The notes under the pieces are model-generated. The model had not been told where the DNA came from, did no database searches, and saw only the letters and a program-made list of their open reading frames with translations. This document shows positions 12,442 through 59,500 of a stretch of 64,000 nucleotides of DNA, piece by piece. How positions within the stretch are numbered: position 1 is the stretch's first letter; every line of letters begins with the position of its first letter. The translations under genes and the position numbers were made by a program. The stretch comes from Mytilus edulis. Taxonomy: Eukaryota. The stretch lies in NCBI RefSeq assembly GCF_963676685.1, contig NC_092349.1, forward strand, positions 29,140,001 to 29,204,000, in the 5' to 3' direction.

Positions 12442-12543
12442 CTTGTCAGTTTTATTTGGATCAATATCTGCTCTTTCTAATAAAAATTGAACTATGTTGA
12501 TGAATCTACCTTCGACAGCTCTGTGCAAGGGAGTAGAACCATA
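12442..12543 (-). CDS. Ankyrin-repeat exon (YGSTPLHRAVEGRFINIVQFLLERADIDPNKTDK)
   Basis: 102 bp, ttttag|...AAG|gtacgt, phase 0-0, TPLH ankyrin motif. Confidence 0.88.
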
Positions 12544-14065
12544 CTAAAATAAAAAGCTTTCAATGATCGTATTATCATACAGACGTATAGAAACACTTTG
12601 TCATACGAATGATTATAGTACAAACAAATAACAATGGCCACAAATTCGAGATTAAAGAACTGCAAAATTATTTTTTATCAATCACATTTTTTATGAAATT
12701 GTACTTATGGATTAAATGTATAACGTGTGTAAGAAAACCAAATTCCTTTTTAATTGACATTGATTGCAAGTTATCTAGAAAGTCGATATTCCGTCTGTTT
12801 ACTCTAGCTTCCACCACAAAACAAGACGCCATGATATAACCATCGTCATAGAACGAAGCTGCATACTCCAACAAACAAATACACGAACAATATCATGGTA
12901 AGTATCATCACACTCATATTATAACAGTTGGTGTAATTACGGTCATATTTCTACAAAAATGTATGGCAAGGCAATCTTGATACGATCATATATCATCATC
13001 TGTCAACACAATACCACAAAAACAAACAATCTGCTAACATCTACGACATTTGTAACGTTGTAGAAAGTTGTCAAAAGTTGTCTCAGTGGCAATTATATCA
13101 CATCTTATATACATAAAGGATGTGTTTACATTAACATATTTCTGCTTTTTAACTTTTCTACAAACCTTCAGAACAGTAAGAAGAAGGAAAAGTGACACTT
13201 TTAAAATGTTCATGCTTCTCAACCATATTTCGTTATTTTTTTCATCAAGAACGCTCAAAAACGCATATTTGAAAGCTGATTATGAAACTTCTGTATCCTT
13301 GTAACAATTGGACTATTATCAGTTTTCTTTTTTATATTTTCAACAGATGTTGTCATTTGTAACACACAGTTACAGTTATAAAATTACTAGAAATGTTAAC
13401 ATGTTGAAAGCACATACGGAACATACGTTAGAATATACGAACCTAATTGATATACTGTAGTTATATTGACTTTTACATACAATAGATAAGATTAATTAAA
13501 TACTTCTTCAATATCAACAACTCATAATAGAAACAATATATCCACCAACCTATACCATTACCAGACATAACAAACAAATACAGACCTATGCCCGAATGAA
13601 ATGTTCCATGGAGTATTGTAAATAGACAGCCTAAACTATGTTACCGATATCTAAGATTTTAAGTGTCCATGAACTCATGCTTGATGATTTTTAGATCAGA
13701 GAATGTACACACACAAATATCGAACTCAGCGGTAAAATCATTAAGGTGAAGTCTGTAATAACTGATAAAAAGAAAGGCTCGAATGCATAAACCAATGGAA
13801 AGATCTAACATCAACTGGCATATTCCAGACTTGGTATTGACATTTTTAAAATTTAATGTTGGTGTTAATGTGGTTTTATTTCTCGATTAGCCTCCCACTC
13901 ACTTATATGATAATTACATATATTTGCATTATATTGACAATGATGCGTGATCATTTCAAACAAAACAATTTTAGTTGTAGAAAGGTCTAAATACAGCACA
14001 AACAACATTTTTCCAAAAGACCAAAAAAGTGAAAAAGTATATTTAAACAAAACGCATTTGACTAA

Positions 14066-14527
14066 GGTGTCAGACCACCAATTACTCCCTCCAATTTAGA
14101 ACGTATGTAAAAGTAGCCCTACTCTGACACAAAATAGTGCTTTTGATGTCCTTGTGTACTTAAACTTACCAACAAATTTGATGAAACTTTTGGTGAAAGA
14201 GAAATATATCTAGATCAGTTTGAGTCAAAATTTACTTGTCTATGAGTTTGTATTAAAAATTGAGGATTATAGTGCTCCATAGTATACTAATTTTAGATTT
14301 CCAGAAAACCAGGTTTTTTTTTGGAGTACCTCTGTTTGATAGTCAGTTATGTTGTTAGAAGGCTTTAAAGGTATGGTGAAAATTGGCATGTAGAAAGCTG
14401 ATACATGTACAATTAAGGATATACCTGGTTTATATGAAGTTAAACTTAAGGTAAAGTATTTAGAAAGCTGTAAAAATTGCAAAATTTGGTTGAACAGATA
14501 GGGATTTTTAATTGGTGGTCTGACACC
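14066..14527. mobile_element. PIF/Harbinger-like MITE
   Basis: TIR GGTGTCAGACC...GGTCTGACACC; flanks TAA and TGA. Confidence 0.7.
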
Positions 14528-14704
14528 TGAGGTCGAACAACTGATGTTCTTTAACCCTGTTGACTGCCATTGGCGATTGCCAAATAAAATTGATCGCAAG
14601 ATGTAACAAAATGGATCTTGATATAAATTTAATACTTAACAGTAAACAATAAACTTGTGGCCAAGAAGTTATGCCACAAGCATGAGGTGTCAATACTTTT
14701 ATGT

Positions 14705-14748: not shown

Positions 14749-14761
14749 TAGGGATCGAAAC

Positions 14762-14763: not shown

Positions 14764-14800
<37 letters not shown>
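14764..14800. repeat. (TA)n microsatellite, left boundary of the 441-bp array
   Basis: Perfect TA run. Confidence 0.95.
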
Positions 14801-14803
<3 letters not shown>

Positions 14804-17370
14804 ACTCGTCTAAACATCAACTCAACAATGTTAGAACTGTAAATTTGCTTTCGCAAATTTTTGGTTCTTCCCTCGCCGGGATTCGAACCCATGCTACTGT
14901 GATATCGTGACACCAAATCGCCTGCACTGCAGCCGTCCCGCTAGACCACACGACCACCTGGGCTCTCAAAAAAAGAGCTTTCGGTGGCCATATGTTACCT
15001 TTCCACGTCAGTTTTAATCTAGCGGCGTACTACAGTACATGATATATAAGGCATGAAGATGTTATTGTTACAGATCAGCTAAATTATCTATAGTAAAGGA
15101 TCCTACAAATTAATGTAAGATACAGTCACCGAAAATAATTATATTCATAAGTACGTCTGAGTCAGTGACAACCCTACAACAGATGTATCCATCGGATCGC
15201 CATCAATGATGGTGATACATGGCTGTGTACATAATGTATATACAACTCGTCTAAACATCAACTCAACAATGTTAGAACTGTAAATTTGCTTTCGCAAATT
15301 TTTGGTTCTTCCCTCGCCGGGATTCGAACCCATGCTACTGTGATATCGTGACACCAAATCGCCTGCACTGCAGCCGTCCCGCTAGACCACACGACCACCT
15401 GGGCTCTCAAAAAAAGAGCTTTCGGTGGCCATATGTTACCTTTCCACGTCAGTTTTAATCTAGCGGCGTACTACAGTACATGATATATAATAGGCATGAA
15501 GATGTTATTGTTACAGATCAGCTAAATTATCTATAGTAAAGGATCGTACAAATTAATGTAAGATACAGTCACAGAAAATAATTATATTCATAAGTACGTC
15601 TGAGTCAGTGACAACCCTACAACAGATGTATCCATCGGATCGCCATCAATGATGGTGATACATGGCTGTGTACATAATGTATATACAACTCGTCTAAACA
15701 TCAACTCAACAATGTTAGAACTGTAAATTTGCTTTCGCAAATTTTTGGTTCTTCCCTCGCCGGGATTCGAACCCATGCTACTGTGATATCGTGACACCAA
15801 ATCGCCTGCACTGCAGTCGTCCCGCTAGACCACACGACCACCTGGGCTCTCAAAAAAAGAGCTTTCGGTGGCCATATGTTACCTTTCCACGTCAGTTTTA
15901 ATCTAGCAGCGTACTACAGTACATGATATATAAGGCATGAAGATGTTATTGTTACAGATCAGCTAAATTATCTATAGTAAAGGATCCTACAAATTAATGT
16001 AAGATACAGTCACAGAAAATAATTATATTCATAAGTACGTCTGAGTCAGTGACAACCCTACAACAGATGTATCCATCGGATCGCCATCAATGATGGTGAT
16101 ACATGCCTGTGTACATAATGTATATACAACTCGTCTAAACATCAACTCAACAATGTTAGAACTGTAAATTTGCTTTCGCAAATTTTTGGTTCTTCCCTCG
16201 CCGGGATTCGAACCCATGCTACTGTGATATCGTGACACCAAATCGCCTGCACTGCAGCCGTCCCGCTAGACCACACGACCACCTGGGCTCTCAAAAAAAG
16301 AGCTTTCGGTGGCCATATGTTACCTTTCCACGTCAGTTTTAATCTAGCGGCGTACTACAGTACATGATATATAAGGCATGAATATGTTATTGTTACAGAT
16401 CAGCTAAATCATCTATAGTAAAGGATCCTACAAATTAATGTAAGATACAGTCACAGAAAATAATTATATTCATAAGTACGTCTGAGTCAGTGACAACCCT
16501 ACAACAGATGTATCCATCGGATCGCCATCAATGATGGTGATACATGGCTGTGTACATAATGTATATACAACTCGTCTAAACATCAACTCAACAATGTTAG
16601 AACTGTAAATTTGCTTTCGCAAATTTTTGGTTCTTCCCTCGCCGGGATTCGAACCCATGCTACTGTAATATCGTGACACCAAATCGCCTGCTCTGCAGCC
16701 GTCCCGCTAGACCACGCGACCACCTGGGCTCTCAAAAAAAGAGCTTTCGGTGGCCATATGTTACCTTTCCACGTCAGTTTTAATCTAGCGGCGTACTACA
16801 GTACATGATATATAAGGCATGAAGATGTTATTGTTACAGATCAGCTAAATTATCTATAGTAAAGGATCCTACAAATTAATGTAAGATACAGTCACAGAAA
16901 ATAATTATATTCATAAGTACGTCTGAGTCAGTGACAACCCTACAACAGATGTATCCATCGGATCGCCATCAATGATGGTGATACATGGCTGTGTACATAA
17001 TGTATATACAACTCGTCTAAACATCAACTCAACAATGTTAGAACTGTAAATTTGCTTTCGCAAATTTTTGGTTCTTCCCTCGCCGGGATTCGAACCCATG
17101 CTACTGTGATATCGTGACACCAAATCGCCTGCACTGCAGCCGTCCCGCTAGACCACGCGACCACCTGGGCTCTCAAAAAAGAGCTTTCGGTGGCCATATG
17201 TTACCTTTCCACGTCAGTTTTAATCTAGCGGCGTACTACAGTACATGATATATAAGGCATGAAGATGTTATTGTTACAGATCAGCTAAATTATCTATAGT
17301 AAAGGATCCTACAAATTAATGTAAGATACAGTCACAGAAAATAATTATATTCATAAGTACGTCTGAGTCA

Positions 17371-17373
<3 letters not shown>
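14800..17373 (-). repeat. Head-to-tail array of ~5.8 near-identical 441-bp units, each with a tRNA-derived (SINE-like) head
   Basis: Unit starts at 14800, 15241, 15684, 16125, 16566, 17007 (period 441/443); only scattered substitutions between units. Confidence 0.97.
14862..14963 (-). ncRNA. tRNA-like Pol III head of unit 1 (repeated in all 6 units); not a canonical tRNA
   Basis: A-box-like TGGTCGTGTGG and B box GGTTCGAATCC with long spacing as in Leu/Ser tRNAs; acceptor stem does not pair well. Confidence 0.75.
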
Positions 17374-17489: not shown

Positions 17490-18224
17490 TAAGTTATAAA
17501 CCTTGAAATTTATTTATTTTTTTATTTTTTTTATCTTACTTCAAAGTTTATTATATATTTAAGAAAAATCTATGTTTATTAAGGCGAACATTTGTTTGAA
17601 AATGAATCAGATTTAAGAATATCTTAAACTAGGTTAAAAATTGGAAATTTATTTCAATTGAATTCAGTTTAAATTTATAGTGAATTCGATTTTTTTTCAG
17701 TGCAATACGTATAATTTATTTCAATTTGAAATATGATATGCATAAACTATGCATTTAATTTCATATTAAATGCATCATTTTAAGCAGTGAGATTACATTC
17801 AGTTCTTTTAATCAGACTCATCAATCATAAAAACACAGATGATTGATCTATGTTGTTTGATATGAAACAAAGAAAAACATTTTTTTCTTCGGGTTTAAAA
17901 CACATTTGATTATATATAATGCAATATATCATAATCGGAATCATATCTTCAGTTGGTAATGAACTTAATTAACTTTCTTTTACAATAATACTACATCTAC
18001 AGTCATCGAGTTTTCCCATTTCCACACTTTATCAGATAAGTAGTTGTTGTATATACATACGTTAATGAATGATAAATCCTTGTCTTAATTAAATGTGCAA
18101 TTGGAATGCAAAATAAACCGAAACTAAGAAAACGAATCTTAATAGATTGACTGTCTTTGATTTCTATAAAATCAAAGTTATTTGGGTTGAAGTGTGTTTT
18201 GGTATTTCGAATGTCATCAAAGTG

Positions 18225-18415
18225 AGATGGTTAGCGCTATAAAACCAGGTTTAAACCACCATTTTCTACATTTGAAAATGTCTGTACCAAGTCAGGAATA
18301 TGAAGTTCTTGTCCATTCGATTTTGATGTGTTTTGTTTTTGATTTTGCCATGTGATTATGGACTTTCCAAATTGATTTTCCTTTAAGTTCAGTATTTTTG
18401 TGATTTTACTTTTGA
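18225..18415 (+). repeat. Abundant short dispersed repeat ending GTTCAGTATTTTTGTGATTTTACTTTT
   Basis: Copies at ~24390-24610, ~33980-34090, ~39040-39260, ~40134-40190, ~54890-55100 (reverse), ~61290-61385. Confidence 0.8.
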
Positions 18416-18560
18416 TGACGTAAAGCTTTCTTGAATTTTGAAAATTTAGGTATTTTGAAGAGATGTATATAGAATTTATAAGCAACATTATTTTGAAATT
18501 GATTTTGATGAAAGATTCAACAATGTTTTACAAGTATGAAAGAAAAACGTCATCTCGTAC

Positions 18561-18662
18561 CTTATTTTCACCGTTTGGATCTATATCTGCTCTTTCTAAT
18601 AACAATTCAACTATGTCAAGATTTCCACCTCTAGCAGCTGAGTGTAAGAGAGTTTTATTAGA
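18561..18662 (-). CDS. Ankyrin-repeat exon (SNKTLLHSAARGGNLDIVELLLERADIDPNGENK)
   Basis: 102 bp, ttttag|...AAG|gtacga, phase 0-0, open frame; missed by the ORF track. Confidence 0.85.
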
Positions 18663-19453
18663 CTAAAATAAAAAAAAGCTTGTACTGTTTATAGCATGAT
18701 ATGGAAGCTAACAAAAACAATTATATTACATGATAAAATTACAAAAATGTATTTGTCATCATTTCGGGAAGTCAATGAAATTCAATCTTTTTTGCTAATC
18801 GCAATTTCGTTAAAACTGTTTATATAAATTACTTGTGTGCATAGTACATTTCAATGGTGATGTGTAATCGTATCCAGTTTTCATTGACAACGGTTGCCTT
18901 TTTTCCCAGAAGCTCAGTTGTTTTGTGTGTTTATTTTCCCATCCTCTACCAACAAAAAACCTGATCACCTTGGTATGGTCATTATTGTACGTGGCGTCTT
19001 ACTCAAAAAACAAATACACAACAATATCATTGTTAGTTGTTTCGCACTTGTAGTATAACAGTTGGTATTATAACGGGCAGATTTCAAGAAAGATGTTATA
19101 ATAAAGGCAATCGACATAGGACAAGAAATAGTTCTAGTTGTCAAAATTATATAACTGAAACAGACAAGCTGCTTACATTTACGTCTTTTGTGACGGAGTT
19201 GAAAGTTGTTCCGTAAGCAATAATATCAAATTTACTTTTTTTAATATGTATCAGGATATGTGTAATTAAAATATCATTTTTCTTTCTTTTTATTGGATGT
19301 CTCAAACGATTTAGAAATTGTAATACCTAGCTAATTTATTCATATTTTTGGGGCTTTGTATATTTCAATAAAACATTTTCAGTTTTATTCTTATTTGGTT
19401 TGATGAAAGATTTTACAAAGTTTGATTGTCCTGTAAAGGACGTCATCACATAC

Positions 19454-19555
19454 CCTATTTTCGTTATTCGGATCTTTATCTCCTCTTTCTAATAACAATT
19501 TAACAATGTTGATAAATCCACCTTTAGCAGCTGCGTGTAAGGGAGTATCACCATA
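19454..19555 (-). CDS. Ankyrin-repeat exon (YGDTPLHAAAKGGFINIVKLLLERGDKDPNNENR)
   Basis: 102 bp, tttcag|...AGG|gtatgt, phase 0-0. Confidence 0.9.
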
Positions 19556-19939
19556 CTGAAATAGAAGGTTTACAATGTTCGTATTAATATACAGACGTTT
19601 GTAATACAAACTATGTCATACAAATGATTAAAGTACAAAAAAAACATAGGCTAACAATGCGAGAATGATGAATTTCAAAATAGTTTTTCTTAATCGCATT
19701 TTTTTCTGAGACTGTTAATAAACTGTGTATTCGAATCCCATTGATTATAATAGAAAGTAGTTTGTACTGTTTGTGTACTCAATTATCATCCCCAACACAA
19801 ACTGAAAAAAGCTTTAAACTCCAACAAAACAAATACACTAACAACATCATGGTAAGTTGTCCTACACTCTTAGTATAACTGTTTGTATCATTACGGGCAG
19901 ATTTCAGAAAAGAGGTATCAATGCAGGCAATCGAAATAA

Positions 19940-22200
19940 AAGAGTGTCGAAAGATACCAGAGGGATGGTCAAACTCATGGATCGGACATAAACTGACAAA
20001 GCCATGGCTTAAAAAGTAACAGACAAAGGACAAATGATAGAACACAATACACACATCTGGTGCTCATGTTGTTACAAACCCAGTCAATAGTCTAATTCGG
20101 TAGGTCATGTTCGTCAAATGGGGAATGGAATTGTATTTACGACGTAAGGAACATATACGATATGATCTGTGAAACGAGTATTCCATAATGGTCAACCAAC
20201 TCGTGATAGCATCAGTAAAATTTACGAAGGGATGATTTCAACTTCAACTTTTTGAACTCTTGGTTTAGTAGCTTCCGTGTATGCAAGTACCATCTATCAA
20301 GGAAATCATGATAGGATATACAAGCCTGGGAATATAGTATCAATTGGGAGATACTGTATCTGTTGTATCCTTTTTGTCTTATTCGATGAGATAAATGTGT
20401 TCAACATAGTAACCAAATTTTGAATTATTTAGTGAGAGTATCTTTCTTCCTAAGAAGTTCCTGAATGAAGCCAGCCTCATTATAATAAAGAAAGAAGTAG
20501 GCAAGAAGAGGGTCACAATTGGTTCCCATTGGAATCCCAACAGTCTGTGGAAAAACACGTCCTCCAAACGTAACAAATATGTTGTCAAGTAAGAAATCAA
20601 GCATCTTGATAATCTTAGTTTCAGAATTTTGTTTTGTTAATTTGATTCAGAGTGATTCTTTACAAAAAGAGGGAAGAAAGATACCAGAGGGACGGTCAAA
20701 CTCATATATCGAAAATAAACTGACAACGCCAAGGCTAAAATTGAAAAAAACAAACAGACAAAAATAGTACACATGACATAAAATATAAAACTAATGAATA
20801 ACCAACACGGACCCCATCAAAAACTAGGGGTGATCTCAGGTACTCCGGAAGGTTTAGCAGATCCTACTCCACATGTGGCACCCGGCGTGTTGCTTATGAA
20901 ATAACAAATCCGGGAAATAGTCTAATTCGGTAGGTCACATTCATGAAAGGATAGGGGATTGTAGTTACGACGTAAGGAACATATCCGATATAATTTGTGA
21001 AACGGTTATTCCATAACGGTCAACAAACGCGTGATGGCGTCCTAAATTTACGAAGAGATGATTTCAACTTCACCATCTGGAACTATTGATTTAACAGCTT
21101 CCTTGTGAGCAACAACCCTCTATTAAGAAAATCATGATAGGAAATACAAATGAGGACTTATCCATCCCTAAGACAAGATACTTGCATACTTTTTTAGAAA
21201 ACAAAGCGAAGCCAACTCTTTCAATTTGTCTTTTAGTTTGAAATGGGGAATACTTGTGTAAAGTGTAGAAAAGTCAAATGTTTTTTTATCTATTGCAAGA
21301 TAAACAAAAGTAGTCTTAGATTGTACGTACTCCAAAAGATCGTTTCAATTTTTCAGTATCCCCATCGGATTCACGCCACCTAATAATAATTTCGAAACCC
21401 GGATTTGATGGTAGATAAAGCAGAGGTTTCGTTTTTTTGCGAAATTTGGGTCTTCAAGATTGACGTAGCATGGGTATTGATAGACCCTTTCAGTTTCTTA
21501 ATACTGATTTGTATCAACGACCTCACAGCCTTAAAAGAGGGACGAAAGATACCAAAGGGACAGTCAAACTCATAAATCTAAAACAAACTGACAACGCCAT
21601 GGGTAAAAATGAAAAAGACAAACAGAAAAACAATAGTACACATGACACAACATAGAAAACTAAAGAATAAACAACACGAACCCCACCAAAAACTAGGGGT
21701 GATCTCAGGTGCTTAATCTATTCGGAAAGAATAATTACGTCTTCGTTTTTGTGTTTAGCCATTTTTCATGCAAAATCCGCGACTGAATCCATAAGTATGT
21801 TGAAGGTTTATTTCCAATTGATTTGATTTAGGCTCACGATATTAAGGACCTTTGGATAACACATTTTGCAGGGAAGTGTTATTGACAATATAATAATGGT
21901 GAGGTCAACGGTAATAACGTTGCTAGCCGGAATGTTTGTGAATTGCGAACTAGCACAGGTGCAATCAGGAGGTTTAGATTTGTTGTCAATATTAAAATAT
22001 TGCAAAACGTTTTTGAAATTCGACATTTGGGTTGCTATTGGTTTGGTATAGGTATAAGAAATGATAGATACATGCTGATCTTTAAAATAAGGAGGTATTT
22101 TCGACAGAACTTATTTTTGATAACAGTTATTGCATAAGTTAACGCCATCGAGACCTTCGTTGTCAAATGAAAGTTTATGAATTGTATTTTAAATCAATCT
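19940..22200 (-). mobile_element. Fragmented, nested Penelope-like retroelement copies (RT pseudogene plus repeated 3' ends)
   Basis: Minus-strand frames read VGIPMGTNCDPLLA (~20500-20545), TFDFSTLYTSIPH (~21240-21285), YREPKSINW (~21815-21842); three copies of the 3' end AAGAG..GAAAGATACCA.AGGGA..GTCAAACTCAT at ~19940, ~20667, ~21535. Confidence 0.8.
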
Positions 22201-23648
22201 GTGCATAAGGATTAAGTTGATAACTTCTGTACATAAGTTAATAACGTATGAACATAAATATTTAGTTAATAACTTCTGTACATAAGGACTAAGTTAATAA
22301 CTTTTGTACACACAACATGCTCATGGTGATATGTATTCGAATCTTTTTTCAATTGATAAAGATTACTAGTTTTCCAGAAGGTCTGTTGTTCTGTCTATTT
22401 CCTCCGGGTTCATCCACCAACATTGTAAAACAAACTGACAATAGAAACTATTAATAACCGCAGATGTGTACAGTATTAATTAAACCAAATACGTAAGAAT
22501 AGGAACAATATATCCGACAACCTATACCATTACCAGCCATTAACAAACAAATACAGACCTATGTCTGAATAAATTGTTCCATTGAGTATTGTAAATAGGC
22601 AGTATATATTTTACATACCAGTACAGATAATTGAGATCTTTCATGTCCATGAAATCATGCTCTATGATTGTTAGATACAATAATGAGGAACTCAAGGGTG
22701 AAATCAAAAAGGTGAAGTCCGTAAAAACTGACAAAACCAATGGAAAGACCTGACAGGAACTGACATATTCTTGACTTGGTATCGGCAATTTTTAAAGAAA
22801 ATGTTGTCGTTAATGTGGTGTATAGGTTGTTCAACCTCCCATTTACATGACAATTATATATAGTTCCATTATATTGATAATATTGCTTGATCAATCAAAA
22901 CATACATACGTACATACATTATATCAACTATTTGTTTTAGATCATGACAAACACACAGTCACAACTAGCAAAGAGATCAACACAAACAAGCGTCTGGAGA
23001 TGATACTTAATAGAACTTCATAATCACACCTTAAAACAATACAGTTTGATTCAAGTAAACTATTGCTACGAGGCACACAAATCAAAGTCCGCTATACAAA
23101 TGGCATGCGTCCGAGTCAAACCTTTAGATTCAGCACAATCGGGAAGCCACAAAATCTAAAACACGAAAGCTGTATCATCATATACATAGTCATGTCAGGA
23201 GTCATACGGCCATAAAGGAAATAATAGTAAGAATACAAATATACGGAAAACTGTAAAGGTAATGATATGATACAGTGTCAAAAACTGAAATCATTAACTG
23301 AAGACCATCATGTATTATTATAAACTGTATATTCAAGCTAGTCAATTTTGCCACGGTAGAATAAATAACCAATTGACAAGTACATGATATAGTTAATGAA
23401 CTATTGAAATAACAAATCCACCAAGGCCCTCTTTCACCTTTGATTATAGTGTAAAACTTACATTTCACATTTTTGTTTATAAGATAAACATATGCATAAA
23501 CTACTAACTAGAAAATAATAGAGTCCAACTATTGAGAAATATAGGATTTGCAAGTGTCTCTGTAATATAGACATGTTCTTTTATTGAAATAACTGTAATT
23601 GTCGCGAAAGAATATAATTAACATATGTACATTCCCGTGTCCTTCGTT

Positions 23649-24290
23649 CATTTATGTTAGAGATCAATATTTTAACATGCATTATGGAGTCAATGCGTAT
23701 GATCTTTATTATTTACATGATTTAAATGCCATAGATGAATCTAGCAACTCATTCATTGAAAACGACTGTCTACTTTCTTCTACACAAAATACAACTTACG
23801 AAGATTTTTCATGTTAGTGTATGTTCACAAAGGTTGATATATATTCACTGATTCAGAGAACAAATCTTTGTCCCGTTACCTTTTTCACGAATGTAACGTA
23901 CCGAATTAGATTGTTTACTGTCTTTGTAATAACATGAGCAACACGTCGGGTGCCAGATGTGGAGAAGTTTATTTATGTTAGAGATCAATATTTTCACATG
24001 CATTATGGAGTCAATGCGTATGATCTTTATTATTTACATGATTTAAATGCCATAGATGAATCTAGCAACTCATTCATTGAAAACGAATGTCTACTTTCTT
24101 CTACACAAAATACAAGTTACGAAGATTTTTCATGTTGGTGTATGTTCACAAAGGTTGATATATATTCACTGATTCAGAGAACAAATCTTTGTCCCGTTAC
24201 CTTTTTCACGAATGTAACGTACCGAATTAGATTGTTTACTGTCTTTGTAATAACATGAGCAACACGTCGGGTGCCAGATGTGGAGAAGTT
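23649..24290. repeat. Recent tandem duplication, 2 x 321 bp
   Basis: Near-identical copies; single copy in the paralog at ~38620-38940. Confidence 0.92.
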
Positions 24291-25030
24291 CTGCTTACAC
24301 TTCTGGAACAGCCGGAGATTTTGGTGGTATTCGTGTTGCTGTTGTACCGCTTTTGTGTCTTTGTTTTGTTTACGCATCGTTGTCAATATAATGGAATTTT
24401 ATGCTACTGTCGTACAAGTGAGAGTTTAAGTACTATAAAAGCATGTTTAGACCACCATTTTCTACATTTGAGTGTGCCTGTACCAAGTCAAGAATATGAC
24501 AGTTGTTGATCATTCATGTCATGTGTTTTATTATTTGTTTTGCCATTTGAATAGGGTCTTTCAGTTTTTGAATTTTCCTCGGAGTTCAGTATTTGTGTTA
24601 TTTTACTTTTTATCGATATGTTGCAATTAAACAACATGTTAAAATTGGTATATGAAATTGTCGACAACAATGAATAACGCTTAAAAACTTTTTGAATAAA
24701 ATAGATAGTGGAAACGTGGATTGTGTCAAAAATACAAAAAAACAAAAAAAAAAAACAGAAAAGAGCCCAAGCAACCAACTGGTCTTATTCACAGCGATAA
24801 AATTCCTTACCTGGTGGTATGCTTTAGCTGGTTCTTAACAATAATGATAACTGGTTCAGCTAAAATGGACGTCACACTTATCCCAAAACAGATAAATGAA
24901 CCAGATTTTAAAAAAGATTCATTCAAGATTAACAAAGACCAGAGAAACCTGATTTGGAACAGGCAGAAAAATGTCCGAGTTCGATGTTTTGATAGGTAAC
25001 AGAGGAAACTTCCATATATAGAATGAAATA

Positions 25031-25231
25031 CTGTAAATTCAGACATTTTTGCTATGTTTAAATTACTGCGAAAAATCTGACAGGGTTATAATCGCAATGA
25101 TTTAAACTCGCATTTTTTTATATAAATTTTAATTATGAATTTTGTCAAAACCGCAAAAATCAAAATTGTATTTCAATCTAAAACGATAAAATTGCAATTA
25201 TAAATACACGCGATAATTTCTGAATTTCCAG
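25031..25231. mobile_element. TA-flanked MITE (paralog 39664-39879)
   Basis: TIR CTGTAAATTCAGA...TCTGAATTTCCAG with TA on both sides. Confidence 0.75.
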
Positions 25232-25812
25232 TATCAAAGAAAAAAATGTATTAAAAACGAATAGTGAAGAGAACAACTGAAGGTCTTACCACTACATAAA
25301 GCACACATATTTTGATCGAAAATGTTAACTTCCCGTTTAAAATGTCAATTCTGGTGTAAAAAAAATACAGCTAGATGCACGTTGTCTATTTTATGAAACA
25401 AATATGATTTCTACATACTTTTGATAAAAAATAAGGGAGAATGGTAGGTACTTCTGATTTTAGGTTTGGTAAAATTTAAACCTTACTTTACACTGATCTT
25501 AAAAATATAACGTTCTTGTAACTTAAAAATAGTGAAAAAAACAACAACTTCCTGGTTTCTAAAGGTTGCTTCCGGTTAATTTCTTTTTAAGTCAAAGACT
25601 GCTGACCCATGGTAAATAAACTTTATAGAAATAGGAAGATGTGGTATGAATGCCAATGAGACAACTCTCAACCCAAATAACAATTTATAAAAGTAAACGA
25701 TTATAGGTGAAGGTACGGCCTTCAACACGTAGCCTTGACTCACACCGATCAGCAAGCTATAAAGGACCCCAAAATTAGTCAATTAGGAAAACCTATGAGT
25801 CTAATCTATATA

Positions 25813-25968
25813 GTTTTTTGGTAGGGTTCGTGTTGATTATTCTTTAGTTTTCTATGTTGTGTCATGTGTGCTGTTGTTTGTTTGTCTTTTTCATTTTTAG
25901 CCATGGCGTTGTCAGTTTGTTTTAGATTTATGAGTTTGACTGTTCCTTTGGTATCTTTTGTCCCTCTT
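25813..25968 (+). mobile_element. Short Penelope-like 3'-end insertion, specific to the left duplicate
   Basis: Reverse complement of 21535-21690; absent at the paralogous site ~40525. Confidence 0.75.
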
Positions 25969-27164
25969 CTTTATAATAATGAGAAACGAGAAACACGTAT
26001 GAACTAAATCAACAAATGACAACTACTGTACATCAAATTCCTGACTTAGGACAGGTTTGACTTTATCATGTACCAATAATGATATACAACAAAGAATGAA
26101 ATGTAGAACGTTGATTTTGATTTTAACCTTGACCTCAATTTCAAGGTCTTAAAGCAAGGATGTTAATCAAAAGACCTGAATTATATGCTGTGTATGATTT
26201 ATCTGTTATAACAAATAAAGGCAACAGTAGTATACCGCTGTTCAAAATTCATTAATCGATAGAGAAAAAAAACACATCCAGGTTACAAACTAAAACTGAG
26301 GGAAATGTATCAAATATAAGAGATCTACGTCACAACAGAGACTCAACACCGAAATGTAAAACACTCAGAAACGAACTATAGTTTAACAATGGCCATTTTC
26401 CTGACTTGCTACAGGGCATTTTATGAAAAAAATGTTGGTTGAACCTGTTTTTCGGACATGCCAAACCTCCCGCTTTAAAGGCAGTGTTAATTATAACATT
26501 AAAATGACAACTTTACACGACAGGGCTACAATAAATAAATGGGAGAAAATATAGGACAGGGAAACAAACGAATAATAGCCATCAAAAGGTAACAGGTTAA
26601 AAAATATGTTTATACGCGAGACGTGCTACGTCCCCACAAAACTATGCTCAGATGAAAAAAGTTTGAAAGCCATAACAACTACAAAGCTAAATATCGCCGA
26701 GGATCAAGAGTTTCAAAAAGTTGTGAGGGCAGGGTTATCCGACCGGGAAAACAAAACATCAGTATTATCAAGAATTATACATAGTTTTACAAACAGCAAA
26801 TTTTGTAAAATGACTATATAATAGATATTCATGATAAAACTGAAGTGTTGACTAGCTAAAGACTAAAAACGAATACATGACAATCACAGCCGTGTTAGCC
26901 ATAGTCATTGCAACGCCCAAAGTGACATGACGTCATATATAAATTTCTAAAACGTGTTCCGAAAATCAAGAAATAATTTGAAATGCAAAATTAGATCTGT
27001 ATGACTTATCTTACTTATATCAATAACAGTGAAAATTATAATAATAATTAATATTTAATTGTAGTAAGTAGTTATACGAATTTGCACTCAGCAAAACAGT
27101 CACATTCGGTGATAAGTCACGTTCGGTAATAAAAAGATCAGACGACGTAATGACAAACCACAAT

Positions 27165-28100
27165 CTAACACGCGGTAAAAATGTCCATAGTTAGATTGGA
27201 CAAAGATACATCGTATGGATCAACCAATTCGTGATGGTGGCCGTGCAATTTATGGAGTGTCATTTTTAATCTGTCCTCCTCATAATTTTGTTGGTGCAGT
27301 TTCTGCGTTATGAGCACGCTCCTGTATATGCAGTCCGTATAGTGTGAACATGCACGAGCATAACGTATCAATTGAGATATGTTAACACCATACGAAGGGG
27401 CAGAGGGTATGTTACTGCTGATCAATGGTAAATTGATAATTGGGAAGTTGAAATCGTCCCGTTTATCATAGATTTTCGTGTGAAGTCATCCATCGTCCAA
27501 TGTGTTAATATTGAGGAAAATATCAAGGTATGAAGCAGTCCTTCTAGTATCAGTAGTATCCCTAATTCCATTTTCACTGGGATATATGAAATGCAAGTAC
27601 TGGCTGAAATATTGGTTATTCAATGATAGGACATCATCAACATATAGGAAAGTGAAATTAAAGAATTTAGCAAGGTGCTTTTTCTGTTTGTCTTTTAGAA
27701 GTGTTTGAATGAATTCTGCTTCATACGAGTACAAAATCAAATCGGCTAGTAGGGGAGCACAATTAGTACCCATTGGAATAACGATTGTCTGTTGAAATAT
27801 GAATCCTCCAAACTCAACAAATATGCTGTCGATCAAATAGTCCAGTATTTTGATAATATCATCTTCAATATATTTTCTGGTTGATTCATTGTGGTTCTTT
27901 AAGAATATAAATTATTATAACCCAAAAACAAGAAATTTGTATCTACGATTCCATTTTTATAGAAATAGCTTTGTTTAATGAGATGATGGAGTTGATCTTT
28001 TAACTGCGTATGGGGAAAAGTAGTATAAAGCGTAGAAAAATCAAAAGTCTTTATGTTGTTGCAAAATTCCAAAGCTTGTGATGGAAGATTAAGCAGCAAC
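27165..28100 (-). pseudogene. Penelope-like reverse transcriptase pseudogene
   Basis: IKTFDFSTLYT, IPMGTNCAPLLADL, YVDDVLSLNN, YDKRDDFNFPI, SNIPSAPSYG..ISQLIRYARACS; several frameshifts; no endonuclease domain seen after the RT thumb. Confidence 0.9.
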
Positions 28101-31100: not shown

Positions 31101-31305
31101 GATTATTTATCTTTGATTCCTATAAAATCTCAATGATTTGGGTATACGTATGTTTTGGCATTTCGAATATTCTAGATACATAACGTTTTTTCACTCTTAA
31201 GATTAGAGTACTTCGCTGAGATGAGTATTGCAACATTATGTTAACATTGATTTTGATAAAAGATTCAACAAAAAATCACAATGTGTACAAAACGTCATCA
31301 CGTAC

Positions 31306-31410
31306 CTTAGTTTCTTTATTTGGATCTATATCTGCCCTTTCTAATAACAATTGTACTATGTCGAGATGTCCATACCTAGCAGCTGAATGTAAGGGAGTAT
31401 CACCATTATA
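31306..31410 (-). CDS. Ankyrin-repeat exon (YNGDTPLHSAARYGHLDIVQLLLERADIDPNKETK)
   Basis: 105 bp, ttttag|...AAG|gtacgt, phase 0-0; missed by the ORF track. Confidence 0.9.
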
Positions 31411-32208: not shown

Positions 32209-32310
32209 CTCATTTTCTTTATTCGGATCTATATTTCTTCTTTCTAATAACAATTTAACTACGTTGATGAATCCACCTTTAACAGCTGCGTGTAAGGGAG
32301 TTTCACCATA
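32209..32310 (-). CDS. Ankyrin-repeat exon (YGETPLHAAVKGGFINVVKLLLERRNIDPNKENE)
   Basis: 102 bp, ttttaag|...GAG|gtaatt, phase 0-0; missed by the ORF track. Confidence 0.87.
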
Positions 32311-32876
32311 CTTAAAATAAAAAGTTAACAATGTTCATATTATCATACAGACTTATAAAACAAACCCTGTCATACAAATGATTAAAGTACAAAACAAAAC
32401 ATTGGCCATCAATTTGAGATCGGTGAATTTCAAAATAGTTTTTCTTAATCGCATTTTTTGCTGAGACTGTTAATAAACTGTGTATTCGAATCCCATTGAA
32501 TATAACAGAAAATAGTTTGTTCTGTTTGTGTACTCCATGCAACCAGCAATATAATGGTAAGTTGTATAACACTCATAGTATAACAGTTGGTTGCATTACG
32601 GACAGATTTCAAGAAATAGGTCGGAGTCAAGGCAATCGAAATAAGATATAGTTAAATTTGTTAAAATGTTGCTGCAAAAGCAACCAAACTGCTAACATCC
32701 ACGACATGTGTAACGTAGTTGAAAGTTGTAGCACTGGCTATCATATCACATCTTATATTAATAAAGATAAGACTTGGTATTTACTTTAACATCACTTTCT
32801 TGTTTAACTCAATTATATTTAAAACTGTATGTACAGTAAGAAAAAAAAAGGAAAGCGATACCGTCTAAATGTAAAT

Positions 32877-35652: not shown

Positions 35653-36261
35653 TCGTTGCCAAAATATGTAAAACCCAAAGCTTATAAAAAAGACGAAGAG
35701 TTATAATCCAAAAGTTCCAAAAAGTATGGCCAAATCCGTGAAAGGAATCAGAGCTTTGCACGAGGGAGATACATTCCTTAATTTATAATATTTTTTTTTA
35801 TATTTTGTAACAGCAAATTGATTAACACAAAAAATCCGTATTTTCATGCCAGTACCGGAGTACTAGCTACTGGGTGGTGATACCCTCGAGGACTAACAGT
35901 CCACAAGCAGAGGCATCGATGCAGTAGTACTAATAACATTAACGGTACCAATTTGTATGCACAAGATGTATAGTAAATTTTCATAGTAAATTGTATCACA
36001 AGCTTCTTATGTCATTAGTGATGTAGTTGAAAGTTGTTTTATTGACAATGATATCACATTTACTTTTTTAATGTGTATCAGGATATTTGTAATTTAAACA
36101 TTTTTTTTTATTCGATTTCTCAAACGATTGAGCAATTACTCGACCAATCTATTCATACCGTTTTTTTTTTTTTACTATTTGTATATTTAAACAAAATAAC
36201 AGCTCTCTTCTTATTTGGTTTTGATTGAAGATTTAACAATGTACAGAACGACATTATGTAC

Positions 36262-36325
36262 TTAGTCTATATCTTCTCTTTCTAATAATAATTTAACTAT
36301 GTTAATGAATTCACCACTAATAGCT
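36262..36325 (-). pseudogene. Disrupted ankyrin exon (..AISGEFINIVKLLLEREDID*)
   Basis: Homologous to the 19454 and 32209 exons; internal deletion creates a stop; 5' part replaced by a retroelement fragment. Confidence 0.75.
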
Positions 36326-36703
36326 TAATTTTACGGACGCCATCACGAGTTGGTTGACCGTTATGGAATAACCGTTTCACAAATGATATCGGATATGTTC
36401 CTTAAGTCGTAACTACAATCCCCTTCCCTTACATAAATGTGACTACCGCATTAGACTATTAACCGGATTTGTTATAACATAAGCAACATGACGGGTGCCA
36501 CATCTGGAGCAGTGTCTGTTTACCCTTCGGGAGAACATGAGACCACCCCTAGTTTTGGTGGGGTTCGTGTTTCTTTAGTTTTCTATGTTGTGTCATGTGT
36601 ATTGTTGGTTGTTTGTTCTTTTCATTTTTTGCCATGGCATTGTCAGTTTATTTGATTTGATTTATAAGTTTGACTATCCCTTTGGTATATTTCGTCCCTC
36701 TTT
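36326..36703 (+). mobile_element. 5'-truncated Penelope-like element (RT C-terminus plus 3' end)
   Basis: FYGRHHELVDRYGITVSQMISDMF; reverse-complement similar to ~20667-21055. Confidence 0.8.
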
Positions 36704-45087: not shown

Positions 45088-46342
45088 CTACAGCATAGGA
45101 TGGATTCTAATTGTTATCTTAAAATAATGGATGTAAAATTGACTTTCGGAAAATCCCTTCCTGATAAGAATTTTTAATGATATTAGTTAGCAGTAATTCA
45201 AAAATGAAACGCATGCACTGTTCATGGCATCATATGAAAGTAAAAAAAAAACATCTATACAAATAATACCGTACAAAAAAATTATACATTAGACACCATA
45301 TCATTGAATTTCAAACTGCTTTTGTGAATCGTAATTTTGATGAAACTGAAAATATGGTTTATGTATGTTACTTGTCTACATGAAACATATTCAAGGTGAT
45401 CTGTATTCATATCCTATTATCAGTGACAAAGGTTGCCTTTTTTCCGGAAGTTCAGTATTTCTGTGTAGTTTTTTTTTCCAACCCCTACCAACAAAAACCT
45501 GTTCGCCTTGGTCATTGTTGGTATGGCAATTGTTGTACGTGGCGTTAAATTAGAAAGAAAAAAACAATACACAACAATATCATGGTAAGTTGAATCACAC
45601 TCATAGTATAACAGTTGGTATAATTAGGATCAGATTTCCAGAAAGATATTGTTAAAATATTAAAACTATGCTGCTAAAACAAATAATCTGCTGACATCTA
45701 CAACATTTGAAACTTAGTCGAAAGTTGTCTCAATGGCAATCACAACTTATATTCATTAAGATAAGACCATGTGTTTATCTTAACATCATTATTTTTTTTT
45801 TCTTTCGAATCACGGTCTGTAGTGTTCGGCTAGGATCGCGGTTTTTCGAGTGTTTTAATCATTTTTTTTTTCGAGTGTGATCTATTTTTTTTTCTCGAGT
45901 GAATATGAACAAAAATGTCAATAAACATACTTCCATCTAACAAGACGTGATATAGACACTTGAAATTAGTAAACAATGTTAAATAACGTATGTAAGTATT
46001 TGATTATATATTAATCCGATTTTTTTTTCGTTAAAAAGTTAAAATTCGCCTTAAAATGCTTTTATTCCAAAATAAAGAATAAAGCCATTTTTATACACAC
46101 ACCAATGCAAATGTAGAAGGAAATCCCTACTTGGAATCTATATATCCCTAGACATACAGACACTTTACACAAATTCTCGTTATTGCATTGAAAACATTAG
46201 TTTGTGTTCGAGAGCAGTCGGCCTTTTCCGAGTACCTCCGTGTTTTTTCGAGTGATTATACAAATTTCCTATAACTCAAAATGTTATGTGTCAGTGTTTT
46301 TATGTTTAAAAACAATAAACAATAATCAAAGGATCAAATAAA

Positions 46343-48080: not shown

Positions 48081-50405
48081 TCTTAGCATTTATTCCACCT
48101 ACACATTATTTACAATTGTCATGTGGTTAGATCCGTCTTCACTGCTGTTTATCTATCAAACGCACATTTCTTTGGGAGAGCATGACATATTGGTTGGTTA
48201 ACTATAGTTTGCTTTACTCAACCTTTATCGTAAGTATCATATCATATTGCATATAGGAATAACACACTGATCTTTGCTACATATAAAATAAGTTATGCAG
48301 GCATTTTTATATATACTTCCGTGTTTAAGTCTAAAGTTAGCTAAATATTTGTATTCCAATTATAATGTTATACCCATTCGTTATGAAATTTCACATGTTG
48401 CATTCCATATCTAGTTTAAGTATCGTAGTTAAAGTTCATTTCTATATACCAGTACGAGTAATGATCATGATGATAATTCATTTAAATTAGAGTTCCAATA
48501 GAGTCTACGTTTCGAATTTAATACTACTCTTTTTTTGCAAACGACTGATTCGCTCTGATAGTATTAGCTATAGGCCAACTATATCAATTGTATTGGAACA
48601 TTATAAGATGTATATGTGAGTGCAGTAGTGTGGATTGGACCATGACCTCATTACCAATGATCACTGCTCATGATACCTGTGGTAAAACTTTGCCTATACT
48701 TTGAAATTTAATCGGGATGATAACCGCAGCTTGACATTTAAGGACGTGCATTCTTGTTCTTTGGTTATTGGTTCATTATGAAATTATTTAGCTTATGGTT
48801 CTTTTATTATTGGGATCAAACTGTCAGATCAATAGAAATATTTTACATATCACTGATCACTACGAAGAGTATTCTCTGATCGATTAACTTTGATGTAAAC
48901 AACGTAACTAGGAATGGTAACGGTACCTTTATATAAGCAAAACAGAACAACAAGCATAATGCATGATAAGAATATCAACTTTTCTTAACAGACTTTACCA
49001 TGTATTTTATAGCAATTCAAATTAAGTTCGTATACTAAAATCTATCTATCTTTGAAATGAAAAAAGAGTATCACCGTCGGATAAAATATGTTAAATTGAA
49101 TTATTCAAAATAAAATAAACTCAAACATGTGTATACCTCATTACCGCCAAATAAGGAAGGTACATTTCTGTATCTTTCAACAAATTGGTTAAAACGTAAT
49201 CAATACGCATTAAACTATTGGTTGGAATAATAATTTTAATATGTAAAACAATATATGTATAGAAAAAAGTATAGCATCAATACCAAACATAAAGGTATAT
49301 ACAATAAGCAGAAACCACATAAAGATGAAAAAAATAAAACGCAATCAACCAACAGAACGAGTGAAAAAAGCAAGTATCCTATTCCTGACTTGGTACAGGC
49401 ATCTTGTTATCTTGTAAAATAATATATTTAATTCAATTTATTCTTTCTTCTGTCTATAATATTATGCTCACCCAGTGTTCATAGTCTATATTTGCACCTT
49501 CGGCAAGATAATTCCTGACCTTTTTTATATCTCCGGCTTGTGCTGCTTTAAATAGACCCTGTTAGAATAAAAACCAAGTATGTTTTATTTAAACAATATT
49601 CTTAATTTACAATAATTGTTTATATACAAAAGTATCAAATATATATTGTTTTCTATCTGTACAAATGCAAAATGTTTGTCAATATTTTCACTGTGTCAAA
49701 ATTAAAAGTATAATACAAATGACAGCAATTTTGGAACACAATGAATGCAAAATCTTTTCCTCATCAAGTTAGAGTGTCAGAATTTCATCTCTGTATTTAC
49801 ATTGAACAGTCACTTCAGTAGGTAGTTCATGATGGCGTGTATACCAACCCTAATTGACCACATCATCCAAGTTCCAACAGTGACAGTCTGATATCATTTG
49901 TACTTTATGATAAAAATTATCTAAAGCTCTCTTCTCGGAATAGTATACTGTTAATACATTATGTCGGTTGATTAATTTTGTTTTTAGCTTAACGTCAAGT
50001 GGCAAATATTTCAGTCATGTGGACAACGAGTATATTTTTGAGACGTCTCATATATCAATTATAATCGACAAGGCAAATCTCTCGACAAATCAGACAAAAC
50101 TGATTGTTGATAATTATACAACACCTTATGTATCACGACACTATATAGTTTTCGTTAGAATATTTTGTAGAAAACAGATCGTAAAACAATAAAAACAAGG
50201 TAAATTAGGATGAAATATCCATGCATGCAATGCATAAAGTTAAATTTAAGAAGAGACTAAAAATTTGGGATGCTGATATCCCATGATATAAGAATATTGT
50301 TCCGATGCAATGGATAACCTTTCTATCCTTCAACTTATTAAAAAAATAACTTTCATTTATTTTGTGAAAGCTCCATGTGATTGTATAGCAATTGTTTAAT
50401 GTATA

Positions 50406-56010: not shown

Positions 56011-56555
56011 CAATTGATTGTTATGAGTGGTCATAAGTATGAAAATTTCATAATCTAACTAGACATAATAATAATTGAAAAGTTGTAATGGTCCACATCT
56101 TTGTAACATAAACGTACACAATTCGAAACCTTTCATTAACCAAGCTTTAAACAAAGCAATATATTGGATTAGGAAATCATGCTTTTCAAATGTTTACAAT
56201 ATACAAAGCAGAGTAATCATTTGGATAGCATCCAACAACATCTTAAAAGAGGTTATGAAATTAATTATAATTGACCATGATACTCTGATTAATGTCATGT
56301 AAAATAATAATCAGTGTAAAAGGAAGCAGAGACCATAATGTTACGGAATGTAAATGACACTTTTTGAATAAAATATAAATTTATGCTAATCTTTTAGCTA
56401 AAATAGAGATATATCGAATAAGTCTATAAACTATAGTAAATTTTAATAAAACTGATGATACGTCAAAACCTGAATTCGGAATACGATATAACTGATTGTG
56501 TTTGCTTTATAAAAAATTCGAATAATACGATTTCTCTCATTAGAGTAAAGCTTAC

Positions 56556-56579
56556 CTCATTCAGCTTCCGATTTGCCAT
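56556..56579 (-). CDS. Candidate first coding exon of the ankyrin gene (MANRKLNE; exon 56556-56586)
   Basis: ttttacag|ATAGAAG ATG GCA ... GAG|gtaagc: strong acceptor and donor, good Kozak context (AAGATGG), phase-0 donor. Confidence 0.6.
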
Positions 56580-59500
56580 CTTCTATCTGTAAAATAAACA
56601 TACACATTCATAACATGTGTTAAATCTTTTTAGAAAACCGTTTTAATGGCAACAACAAAGCCAATTTGTGTTTGTCAATTAAGAGCCCGTAAACAAATAC
56701 AGTTTAATCAAAGTATACAAATAAGTGTGGTTGTTTTATCATATTAAGTTACAATTATGTAAAACATATATTTCTATATATGAAAAGGAAACAATGCAAA
56801 GGGTGTGTTCCCGAAGATAATGAGTGAGTGAACACACTCAGTACATTTGTACTACTCAAGAAAGATCTGGCCTGTCACTCATAACTTATTTATTAAGTTT
56901 GCAGTTCTAATCTTAGTTATACTGTATATAAATTTTATAATAATAACATTGACTATTGAAACTTCATTTGACATCAACTAATAAGAAGTCGTGAATTTCA
57001 TCCTCCACAATGTCATTGTAACGTAATTTACAAAATATGTTGTTTAAAGGTATTCAATTGTGTCTTCCCTTTTCTATATCAAATTCATGATCACCGACTC
57101 TAAATTTGGGTAATTCATTCATTTCATTTACAAAACTTTTTATTAGAAAATAATGTTCAGGATAAATATCATTTTAAACACTCTATAAAATGTATATGCT
57201 CTTAATTTATTTCCTTCCTTTCTAAGAAAAAGAATAATAGAAATTTTCAACTCTCCTGAGGGTTATTTCCACGAGGGTTTTCTGCCCCAAAAAAAGAAAT
57301 CGTTAATGTGTTATAATACCGAAAAAATAGTAACCTCATCGGTTTGAATCACCGTAGTGTACTCTGTGTCGAGGTTATTCACCAGCTCTGTCGCTTGTGA
57401 CAAAAATAACATAATCGATTCACACCACGTGATATCTTATTAGACAATACATTATTCAATTTACATTGACGAATCCACAGTATATGACGTTACTTCTTGA
57501 TCAACACAAAAATGGAACGTGTACCAGCAGTTGTATTGAATAGAAAGTGTGAATAAAATATTCATCAAAAAGTTATATAGCGAAGGAAACTTAATTTTTA
57601 TGGTTTTGGTTGTATAATCATCTGTTATGATCTTTTGAAGTCAAAATAATTTAAAAAATGTCTTTCCATTACATCATTGTCATAAAAAATTGTTTGGACG
57701 AGCATGAAAGTTACGTAGCACGTTCTGTTTTTAATGTCCTGCAGCGTTTGTCATTGATGGAATATGTTCGTTATTGTTTTGTGAATGTTCTTCAATGTGA
57801 TTGTGCTGTATTTATTTCATGTAACTTTGTTATTTTAGCGATAACATTATCATAAAGCGGAATGTTTTAGTATGCCATTAAACAAGGTTCAACCCACCTT
57901 TTTTGTTTGTTACCGAATTTTACCGAATTGTAACATTGACAACCAATAAAACAGTGCACATGTAAAGCGTGACAGAAAAGTGAATTGAAAGAGCCATGAC
58001 ATTTGTTTTTATCTGTTCAATGCGTTCCCATTTGTTAATTAAACTTGTCTATCATTGCTAAAGGATCATATTTAGGCTAATGAACTATTCATTTCATTGT
58101 TGATTTTATCTGAAATTTTGTTCCAATTTTGTGTTCAACGGCAATAAAATTGGGGTGGATTAAGTGTGTGTAATTTTTTAAAGTTTTTTTATTAAAATGT
58201 TTCTTTTATTAATCTCCGGAGTTCACCACAAGAAATATTATTAACTGTAAAATCAAAAGTAGCATGAAATGAAGTTAAAATGAATATGAGTTCCCTGCAT
58301 AATGTTCTAGACACCGTTTTGTTAAGAATCAAGTTATTTCTAAATGAACACTGGATAGAAGTTGTATAACGCTATCTTAACAGAATATTTGCATTAAATT
58401 GAAAAAAAGATTCATTTTGATATGTTTTTAATGAGTTAATTATTTGGAATATATATGATATTGTCCTTCACTTAGTTACAGTCATAAACTAGAAAAAAGT
58501 CATTTTTTAAAGTCTAGAATACCTTCAAATTTTCTGTAAAAAAAAAACGGACCATTTGTCGAAAAACCCGGACGATTTCACAGTTGCTCTAGAAAAAACC
58601 CGGACAATAACAAACACTGATTTTCTTACTAAATACAAGGAAATTGAGCTTCTATGTTGATCAAAACATATACAGTATTCAATATAAGATGGGTAGTAAT
58701 GTTAAAAATTGTTATAATTACGTACTATTCGTTAATTGGACTTATCGCATGTTTTATCACTCGAAAAAAATGGACCAAATCACTCGAAAAAAACACGATA
58801 ATAGCAGGACACTATACCTACCGTGAAACGGATTTATACCATGATTAATGATATACGTGATGATTTCATTTTAATATGTAATTTTCTAGTTTTTCAGTTT
58901 TATAACCTTACATTGATTTTTAAACTAAATGAAATGATAAAAAAAAAGAAAGTAAAATTGCATGCATAAATTTGAAGGCAAGAAGATGTGCGTACAATGC
59001 CCAAAAGAGAGTTTGTGTGGTTTTATTTTCTTTCTCGTACAATTTTTACAAGTATGTACACGTTTAATCAGTAAGTGCCCATCATTTTGGCTAGATACAA
59101 ACAAAAGGTGGAAAATAGCTTTTTGAAATGCCGCTCTGTTATCTCTGAGGTTCAAGTTGAAGAAATGGTTTGAACTTTCTGTAAACAAGACGTTTACTCT
59201 ATACTTTCATATAATTATAATTGGATTGGGAAACTATCCACAAAAGACCAAAATGACACAGACATTAACAACTAAAGGTCACCGTACGGCTTTCAACAAT
59301 GAGCAAAGCCCATACCGAATAGTGAGCTATAAAAGGCCCCGATAAGATAATGTAAAACAATTCAAACGAGAAAACTAACGGCCTTATTTATGTAAAAAAA
59401 AGAACGAAAAACAAATATGTAACACATAAACAAACGACAACCACTGAATTACAGGCTCCTGACTTGGGACAGGCACACAAATACATAATGTGGTGGGGTT

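Follow-up and report, generated by a model that had tools for sequence, protein, structure and literature searches.

Single-repeat ankyrin exon cassettes in a Mytilus ROCO gene, a likely diversifying immune sensor

The 64,000-nucleotide stretch of Mytilus edulis DNA analyzed here (the window; C6:29140001-29204000, where C6 is contig NC_092349.1 of a 1.37-Gb genome) contains the start of a gene that, judged by its sequence, is a ROCO gene without a kinase domain and belongs to a set of about ten tandem paralogs in this mussel. Its 42 predicted exons extend over 235,676 bases (~236 kb). We consider it about 70% probable that the gene's product, likely a cytosolic sensor, owes the diversity of its ankyrin surface to germ-line events in which exon cassettes are duplicated, lost or swapped between the tandem paralogs, with positive selection acting on the codons of the binding face. 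The architecture of the gene and its evolutionary pattern are visible in the DNA itself. Coordinates below are those of the window unless marked C6.

An ankyrin array joined to a ROC-COR core

Within the window, five minus-strand exons encode one ankyrin repeat each. All are preceded by AG and followed by GT, are in phase 0 and lack stops. Each passes the Pfam Ank cut-off (31.9-44.9 bits against 21.1), which indicates that these exons are not chance frames. Joined to the codons of the first coding exon (56579-56556), they read as 179 aa with 0 stops. The acceptor ahead of that first exon implies an upstream non-coding exon. The array also contains decayed modules, and self-BLAST reveals blocks in which exons and introns were copied together.

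56556..56586, minus strand: first coding exon; 7 nt of untranslated region after the AG, ATG at 56579, 8 codons, phase-0 donor
49472..49558, minus strand: ankyrin N-cap exon; 87 nt, phase 0, AG/GT, open frame
45201..45646, minus strand: remnant of a module that lost its exon; intron copy stopping at the acceptor position
36250..36348, minus strand: dead A-like ankyrin exon; 5' half and acceptor lost, stops, no proper donor
32209..32310, minus strand: ankyrin exon 1, type A; 102 nt
31306..31410, minus strand: ankyrin exon 2, type B; 105 nt
19454..19555, minus strand: ankyrin exon 3, type A; 102 nt
18561..18662, minus strand: ankyrin exon 4, type C; 102 nt, DNA identical to an exon of the neighboring paralog G4
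12442..12543, minus strand: ankyrin exon 5, type D; 102 nt, 98% identical to two exons of paralog G6
1..12441, minus strand: start of a 24.5-kb intron that leaves the window and leads to the rest of the gene on C6
18482-19783 against 31230-32538, no strand assigned: intragenic duplication, 81% identity
22267-30527 against 37200-45087, no strand assigned: intragenic duplication, 82-86% identity

The original prediction, made from the window's sequence, had correctly placed the five symmetric exons, the 179-aa frame and two decayed modules, a dead exon at about 36262 and one without an exon at about 45195. The last of these (45646-45201) matches the intron at 31846-31413 with 79% identity over 450 nt, and the match stops 2 nt before the start of the exon at 31410. 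The two alternating exon types it had proposed (A-B-A-B-A) gave way to four, in the order A-B-A-C-D, at a 15% distance cut. It had also overlooked the N-cap exon, which we located by tblastn with N-terminal stretches of Mytilus proteins; this exon is present in 6 of 6 C6 paralogs checked and by itself has no Pfam match. The intron between the exons at 18561 and 12442 holds, at 14796-17373, 5.8 copies of a 441-bp unit with 98% identity, flanked by TA microsatellites.

Reading 200 kb downstream of the window showed that it continues for ~180 kb past the window's left end, where the prediction had let it stop at 12442.

C6:29127924-28998034, minus strand: 27 further ankyrin modules, 25 of them intact
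C6:28993377, minus strand: C-cap exon, followed by a 13-nt micro-exon
C6:28986280, 28981860 and 28970239, minus strand: three ROC exons
C6:28969648-28968404, minus strand: COR exon, after ROC
Stop at C6:28960904, minus strand: two death-domain-like folds; four exons, two helical domains, end of the gene

Besides the 27 ankyrin modules, this part contains ten coding exons. The order is thus a first exon, an N-cap, 30 intact ankyrin exons, a C-cap, a ROC GTPase, COR and two death-domain-like folds. The model comprises 7062 coding nt and 2353 aa with a terminal stop only, and 40 of its 40 internal exons are bounded by AG and GT; we infer that the full transcript is spliced as modeled. Instead of the stand-alone, DARPin-like (designed ankyrin repeat protein) binder of 179 aa that had been envisaged, the array is the N-terminal part of this predicted protein, and its C-cap is followed in frame by the ROC, COR and death-domain-like exons.

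Both core domains score above their Pfam cut-offs (Roc, E 1.5e-7; COR-A, E 4.1e-12, 46.6 bits against 35.3), and COR directly follows ROC. The ROC exons carry GEQGTGKT, WDFGG and THKD in this order, which we take to be the P-loop, switch II and the guanine-specificity motif, respectively. ROC is split between the P-loop and WDFGG by a low-complexity insertion of ~500 aa (C6:28981860-28980349) that is very different among paralogs and is modeled as disordered. A fold model was built for the paralog protein P0006 from a 63-row alignment, with a mean predicted local-distance difference test score (pLDDT) of 52.8 that is low over the insertion and part of COR; its top matches in a fold search were Roc-COR structures, the best being that of C. 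tepidum (E 1.5e-4). At its C-terminus two helical bundles are modeled at a pLDDT of ~80-90. The RAIDD death domain aligns with this model at a target template-modeling score of 0.87 and a root-mean-square deviation of 1.7 Å, with an E of 0.43, and Pfam Death matches a distant relative, P0073. The death domains after COR are a putative assignment made by structure only.

Public models of the relatives P0076, P0078 and P0104 likewise join such ankyrin repeats to Roc-COR. No kinase domain was found at the N-terminus, where the model opens with the 8-codon exon and the N-cap, and a Pfam scan found no kinase family match in the relatives P0076, P0001 and P0104. Two other public models, P0008 and P0177, combine the C-cap or first ROC exon of this gene with flanking parts of another paralog and hint at chimeric genes; P0008 was looked for in paralog G10 and not found. 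A ROC intron contains, on the opposite strand at C6:28972914-28978951, an element with long endonuclease and reverse-transcriptase frames that resembles a long interspersed nuclear element (family assigned by eye).

Cassette turnover and selection in a tandem cluster

One ankyrin exon used as a genome query found at least 95 places, mostly within C6 27.6-30.1 Mb and on the same strand. The first coding exon has 13 homologous places genome-wide, 10 of them inside the cluster at C6 27.66-30.14 Mb, and nine COR exons fall in the same stretch among the 100 candidates scored out of 478. The 478 candidates are distributed genome-wide, with ~45 of the 100 scored on C14 and others on C7, C8 and C11, among further contigs, so the ROCO family is very large in this genome. 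Close protein matches of the gene come nearly all from Mytilus mussels.

Five paralogs were mapped in full: G1 with 13 modules, G4 with 27, G5 (this gene) with 33, G6 with 17 and G7 with 33. G2 was mapped in part, G10 has 13 modules (one at an assembly gap), and G3, G8 and G9 lie outside the mapping. Over the five, 107 of 123 modules are intact. All share one frame (first exon, N-cap, array, C-cap and ROC-COR, one each and in the same order), and every one of them has a conserved, in-frame first exon, N-cap and C-cap. By contrast, clustering sorts the ankyrin exons into 11 types whose order is different in each gene. The prediction of interchangeable, symmetric, in-frame cassettes that vary in copy number is thereby borne out between gene copies. 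Between haplotypes it found no counterpart: the second-haplotype candidates C1853 and C819 are 99.8-99.9% identical to C6 and contain the same exons, so that differences in exon number (13-33 modules) are seen between paralogs only.

Many ankyrin exons are 96-100% identical across genes, and this gene is linked to each paralog by blocks of 2.5-8.7 kb with 88-97% identity. Among nearest-neighbor exon pairs with less than 5% flank divergence, 38 of 65 link different genes. The first ROC exon of this gene, by contrast, differs from those of four paralogs by 0.25-0.27 per synonymous site (pS) and 0.06-0.07 per non-synonymous site (pN). Near-identical cassettes beside diverged ROC exons indicate that the exchange of cassettes between genes postdates the split of the cores, presumably by unequal crossing-over or gene conversion.

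A ~266-bp satellite lies in introns of this gene (C6:29068538-29072739 and 29022423-29029654) and in paralogs G1 and G10, and could be a recombination substrate. Three inverted dead ankyrin exons (C6:29825880, 29807189 and 28523859) stand in the arrays of G2 and G7; the same has been reported for algal ROCO genes. Cluster genes at C6:29730951 and 29562840 have the same first exon and ankyrin types with a distant COR (31% identity), which suggests a fusion of the ankyrin front end to another ROCO core. The unplaced contigs C1381 (29599-29601), C819 and C127 are 99.9-100% copies of parts of the G6 5' end and its upstream region. In C1381, position C6:28864003 is followed directly by 28906553, so that a 42.5-kb unit is joined head to tail; this is either an assembly artifact or the trace of a very recent tandem amplification that the chromosome sequence shows collapsed. 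As an origin of the array itself, assembly collapse was rejected, the duplicated blocks of the window being 81-86% identical.

For the analysis of selection we used 106 intact exons (92 distinct) of the five mapped genes, leaving out G10 and G2. The binding-face class comprises seven codons, at repeat positions 2, 3, 5, 10, 13, 33 and 14, the last of which we assume to belong to it; the framework class comprises 17 codons. Positions were mapped onto the 34-residue repeats by ankyrin numbering and alignment. As far as the accessible part of the source describes, positions 2, 3, 5, 10, 13 and 33 lie on the beta-turn and helix 1 and are randomized in DARPin libraries (PMC4308713). Codon likelihoods on a fixed tree replaced class-wise IQ-TREE fits with free branch lengths, which were over-parameterized.

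Among the 92 distinct exons, the ratio of non-synonymous to synonymous change (omega) at the binding face is 2.2 (1.9-2.6) under a shared synonymous rate and 2.8 with its own rate (p 1e-4), compared with 0.57-0.65 for the framework. After correction for 34 tests, three single codons have omega above 1 and two below 1. In nearest-neighbor pairs, binding-face pN is 1.7-2.4 times the divergence of the flanking introns and 1.8-2.3 times pS, and framework pN is 0.67-0.85 times the intron rate. The binding-face excess holds when one flank serves to select the pairs and the opposite flank to score them, and random codon sets match it in at most 0.0002 of permutations. The expectation of a variable binding face on a conserved framework is thus upheld by position. 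The whole-exon average conceals both classes: binding codons that change faster than neutral and framework codons that change more slowly.

Splicing, neutral decay and gene boundaries

Contigs of runs X2 and X3, which we guess to be RNA, span one downstream ankyrin exon edge to edge at ~90% identity, and one X3 contig leads from the end of an exon back to the beginning of one, the pattern expected of two tandem exons spliced together in a paralog. These contigs support the use of such splice sites in the family, with the qualification that they come from paralogs and that the RNA nature of the runs is guessed. A run search with the large ROC exon listed no RNA run, and 14 runs were RNA by guess only. 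In the raw RNA runs X21, X22 and X24 (6-18% of each) and the contig run X1, compared with 17500-37000, bins holding only ankyrin sequence had a raw depth of 0-0.5, and the tables of joints and loose ends for this interval were filled by dispersed repeats. Protein searches for spliced fragments returned gene predictions and unrelated ankyrin proteins, with no usable transcript-derived combination among the matches listed.

These data bear on an account, which we find unlikely, in which the same gene draws its diversity mainly from regulated combinatorial splicing of subsets of the 30 exons, a Dscam-like cytosolic repertoire in each animal. With all ankyrin exons in phase 0, any subset would remain in frame. 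Brown-algal ROCO genes have such splice variants, according to the accessible part of PMC11378527, and P0076 and P0078, apparent orthologs, connect the counterparts of modules 29 and 32, with 30 and 31 left out, in gene predictions from other assemblies. Against it, four contig runs compared with four downstream exons listed no exon-to-exon skip joint (3 of the 4 exons had little or no cover), nor was there one among the joints listed for the runs compared with 17500-37000, and the only informative joint resembles two neighboring tandem exons. Moreover, intact exons have uniform donors and acceptors (mostly AAG|GTA), with no weak-site pattern. Occasional in-frame skipping is possible, given the shared phase, and is not needed to explain the data. 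A short ankyrin-only gene for the 179-aa binder, independent of the ROC-COR gene downstream, is very improbable. The 24.5-kb intron after the fifth exon and the public annotation, which breaks such arrays into short ankyrin-only models, would suit it, but the exon at 12442 has the same GT donor as the other exons and no C-cap, and in each mapped paralog a single first exon, N-cap and array lead to a C-cap that stands just ahead of ROC-COR.

Several observations weigh against a diversified sensor. Taken over all codons, omega lies at 0.9-1.07 and does not differ from 1 (p 0.61), and whole-exon divergence about equals that of introns (0.064 vs 0.052). The original prediction had named equality of exon and intron divergence as the sign of a neutral pseudogene; it is found for whole exons and disappears when the codon classes are separated. 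Framework codons of the youngest pairs have a pN equal to the divergence of introns (0.026 vs 0.027), which indicates that constraint on single copies is weak. The site classes were fixed after the entropy table had been seen, omega can be inflated by recombination among exons, and some dependence remains among the pairs. Moreover, 16 of the 123 modules are broken. In the closest relatives, the majority of public models start with ROC or shortly ahead of it and include few ankyrin repeats, if any; P0114 and P0115, both short models from M. edulis, span only three repeats each. Pfam Death has no match in the C-terminal exons of this gene, the X2 and X3 contigs represent paralogs only, and no transcript spanning ankyrins and ROC was seen in the run contigs and protein searches examined.

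The near-neutral omega, the youngest-pair framework rate, the broken and partly inverted modules and the public models that lack the array would all suit a by-product: recombination-prone blocks evolving near neutrality beside a working protein made of the ROC-COR-death-domain core and a few ankyrin repeats. We regard this as improbable. Neutral decay cannot explain a binding-face pN that is roughly double pS and also roughly double the intron rate. The 87% of modules that are intact exceed the 46%, 16% and 6% that simulation predicts after 5%, 10% and 15% neutral divergence (detection favors intact and young copies), and conservation of the first exon, N-cap and C-cap in the mapped paralogs points the same way.

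We therefore retain germ-line diversification of a ROCO sensor as the best explanation. The long ankyrin solenoid would present a variable surface, binding of a ligand to it would trip the ROC-COR switch, and the death-domain-like pair would recruit partners for immune or cell-death signaling. Ligand, switch and immune role are proposed from ROCO biology and the algal precedent. With module mixes that differ between neighboring copies and a binding surface that changes about twice as fast as neutral DNA, the protein is likely a diversifying immune sensor. A wider and more doubtful idea, which we put forward tentatively, is a mussel system of cytosolic variable receptors. In it, dozens of ankyrin-ROCO-death-domain genes would reshuffle selected exons between paralogs and splice them combinatorially per cell or challenge, an animal counterpart of the Dscam or algal ROCO repertoires.

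Relation to known systems

ROCO proteins of the DAPK1 type are ordered as kinase, ankyrin repeats (~8), ROC, COR and death domain. The mussel gene shares the ankyrin repeats before ROC-COR and, by structure-based fold assignment, the death domain after it. It differs in that its model has no kinase exon, 30 repeats instead of ~8, two death-domain-like folds, a ~500-aa low-complexity insertion in ROC and a large, fast-evolving paralog family. One-repeat, in-phase exons are common in ankyrin genes, so the exon anatomy alone is ordinary. The novelty lies in an animal ROCO family that carries them as an array of cassettes with fast turnover and positive selection.

The closest precedent is found in brown algae. 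In the accessible parts of two studies (PMC3341825, Zambounis et al. 2012; PMC11378527, Teng et al. 2024), algal ROCO genes have one repeat per exon, shuffled leucine-rich repeat (LRR) exons whose number varies between paralogs, dead and inverted exons in introns, and diversifying selection on the binding face, and are proposed as immune sensors. The mussel gene shares the ROC-COR core, one repeat per symmetric exon, variation in number and order between paralogs, dead or inverted exons in introns and, with the recombination caveat, diversifying selection on the binding face. The algal exons are 72-nt, phase-2 LRR exons of a stramenopile with annotated splice variants, whereas those of the mussel are 102- or 105-nt, phase-0 ankyrin exons of an animal gene with death-domain-like folds. 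Fungal NLRs with diversifying repeats, including truffle ankyrin NLRs with alternatively spliced mini-exons (PMC13449251, accessible part), also combine a nucleotide-binding switch with a diversifying repeat sensor, ankyrin in some; they use a STAND NTPase and exchange repeats within an exon or by codon-sized exons, in contrast to the ROC-COR and whole-repeat exons found here. With DARPins the array shares an N-cap, stackable internal repeats and a C-cap, and the beta-turn and helix 1 residues that vary in it are those randomized in libraries (PMC4308713 and PMC8229355, in part), but it is natural, germ-line encoded and fused to a GTPase switch and death-domain-like folds.

Mytilus proteins annotated as 'COR domain-containing' or uncharacterized (XP_063448209.1, VDI69019.1, CAG2203250.1) belong to the same family, the best public match being 93% identical over the COR exon; unlike the present gene model, the public ones mostly drop the ankyrin array or split it into short genes. 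Our literature search, with most subscription journals outside its reach, found no paper on mussel ankyrin-ROCO exon cassettes. Genes for death-domain proteins and immune GTPases are reported to be enriched among dispensable mussel genes (PMC7653742, accessible part). This enrichment fits the ROCO reading without naming the family, and the word 'ankyrin' is absent from the main text of that paper as far as it was accessible.

Current annotation hides the array by cutting the ankyrins off the GTPase core, and the exon map given here opens questions of splicing and copy number to long reads. To our knowledge, bivalves have no adaptive immunity, yet they withstand large numbers of microbes, and most of the diversified recognition families known from them act outside the cell. 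If the reading proposed here is true, a swappable, positively selected ankyrin surface on cytosolic ROCO proteins would add a class of intracellular sensors to their defense, and the exon-cassette design of brown-algal ROCO genes would have arisen again in animals with a different repeat.

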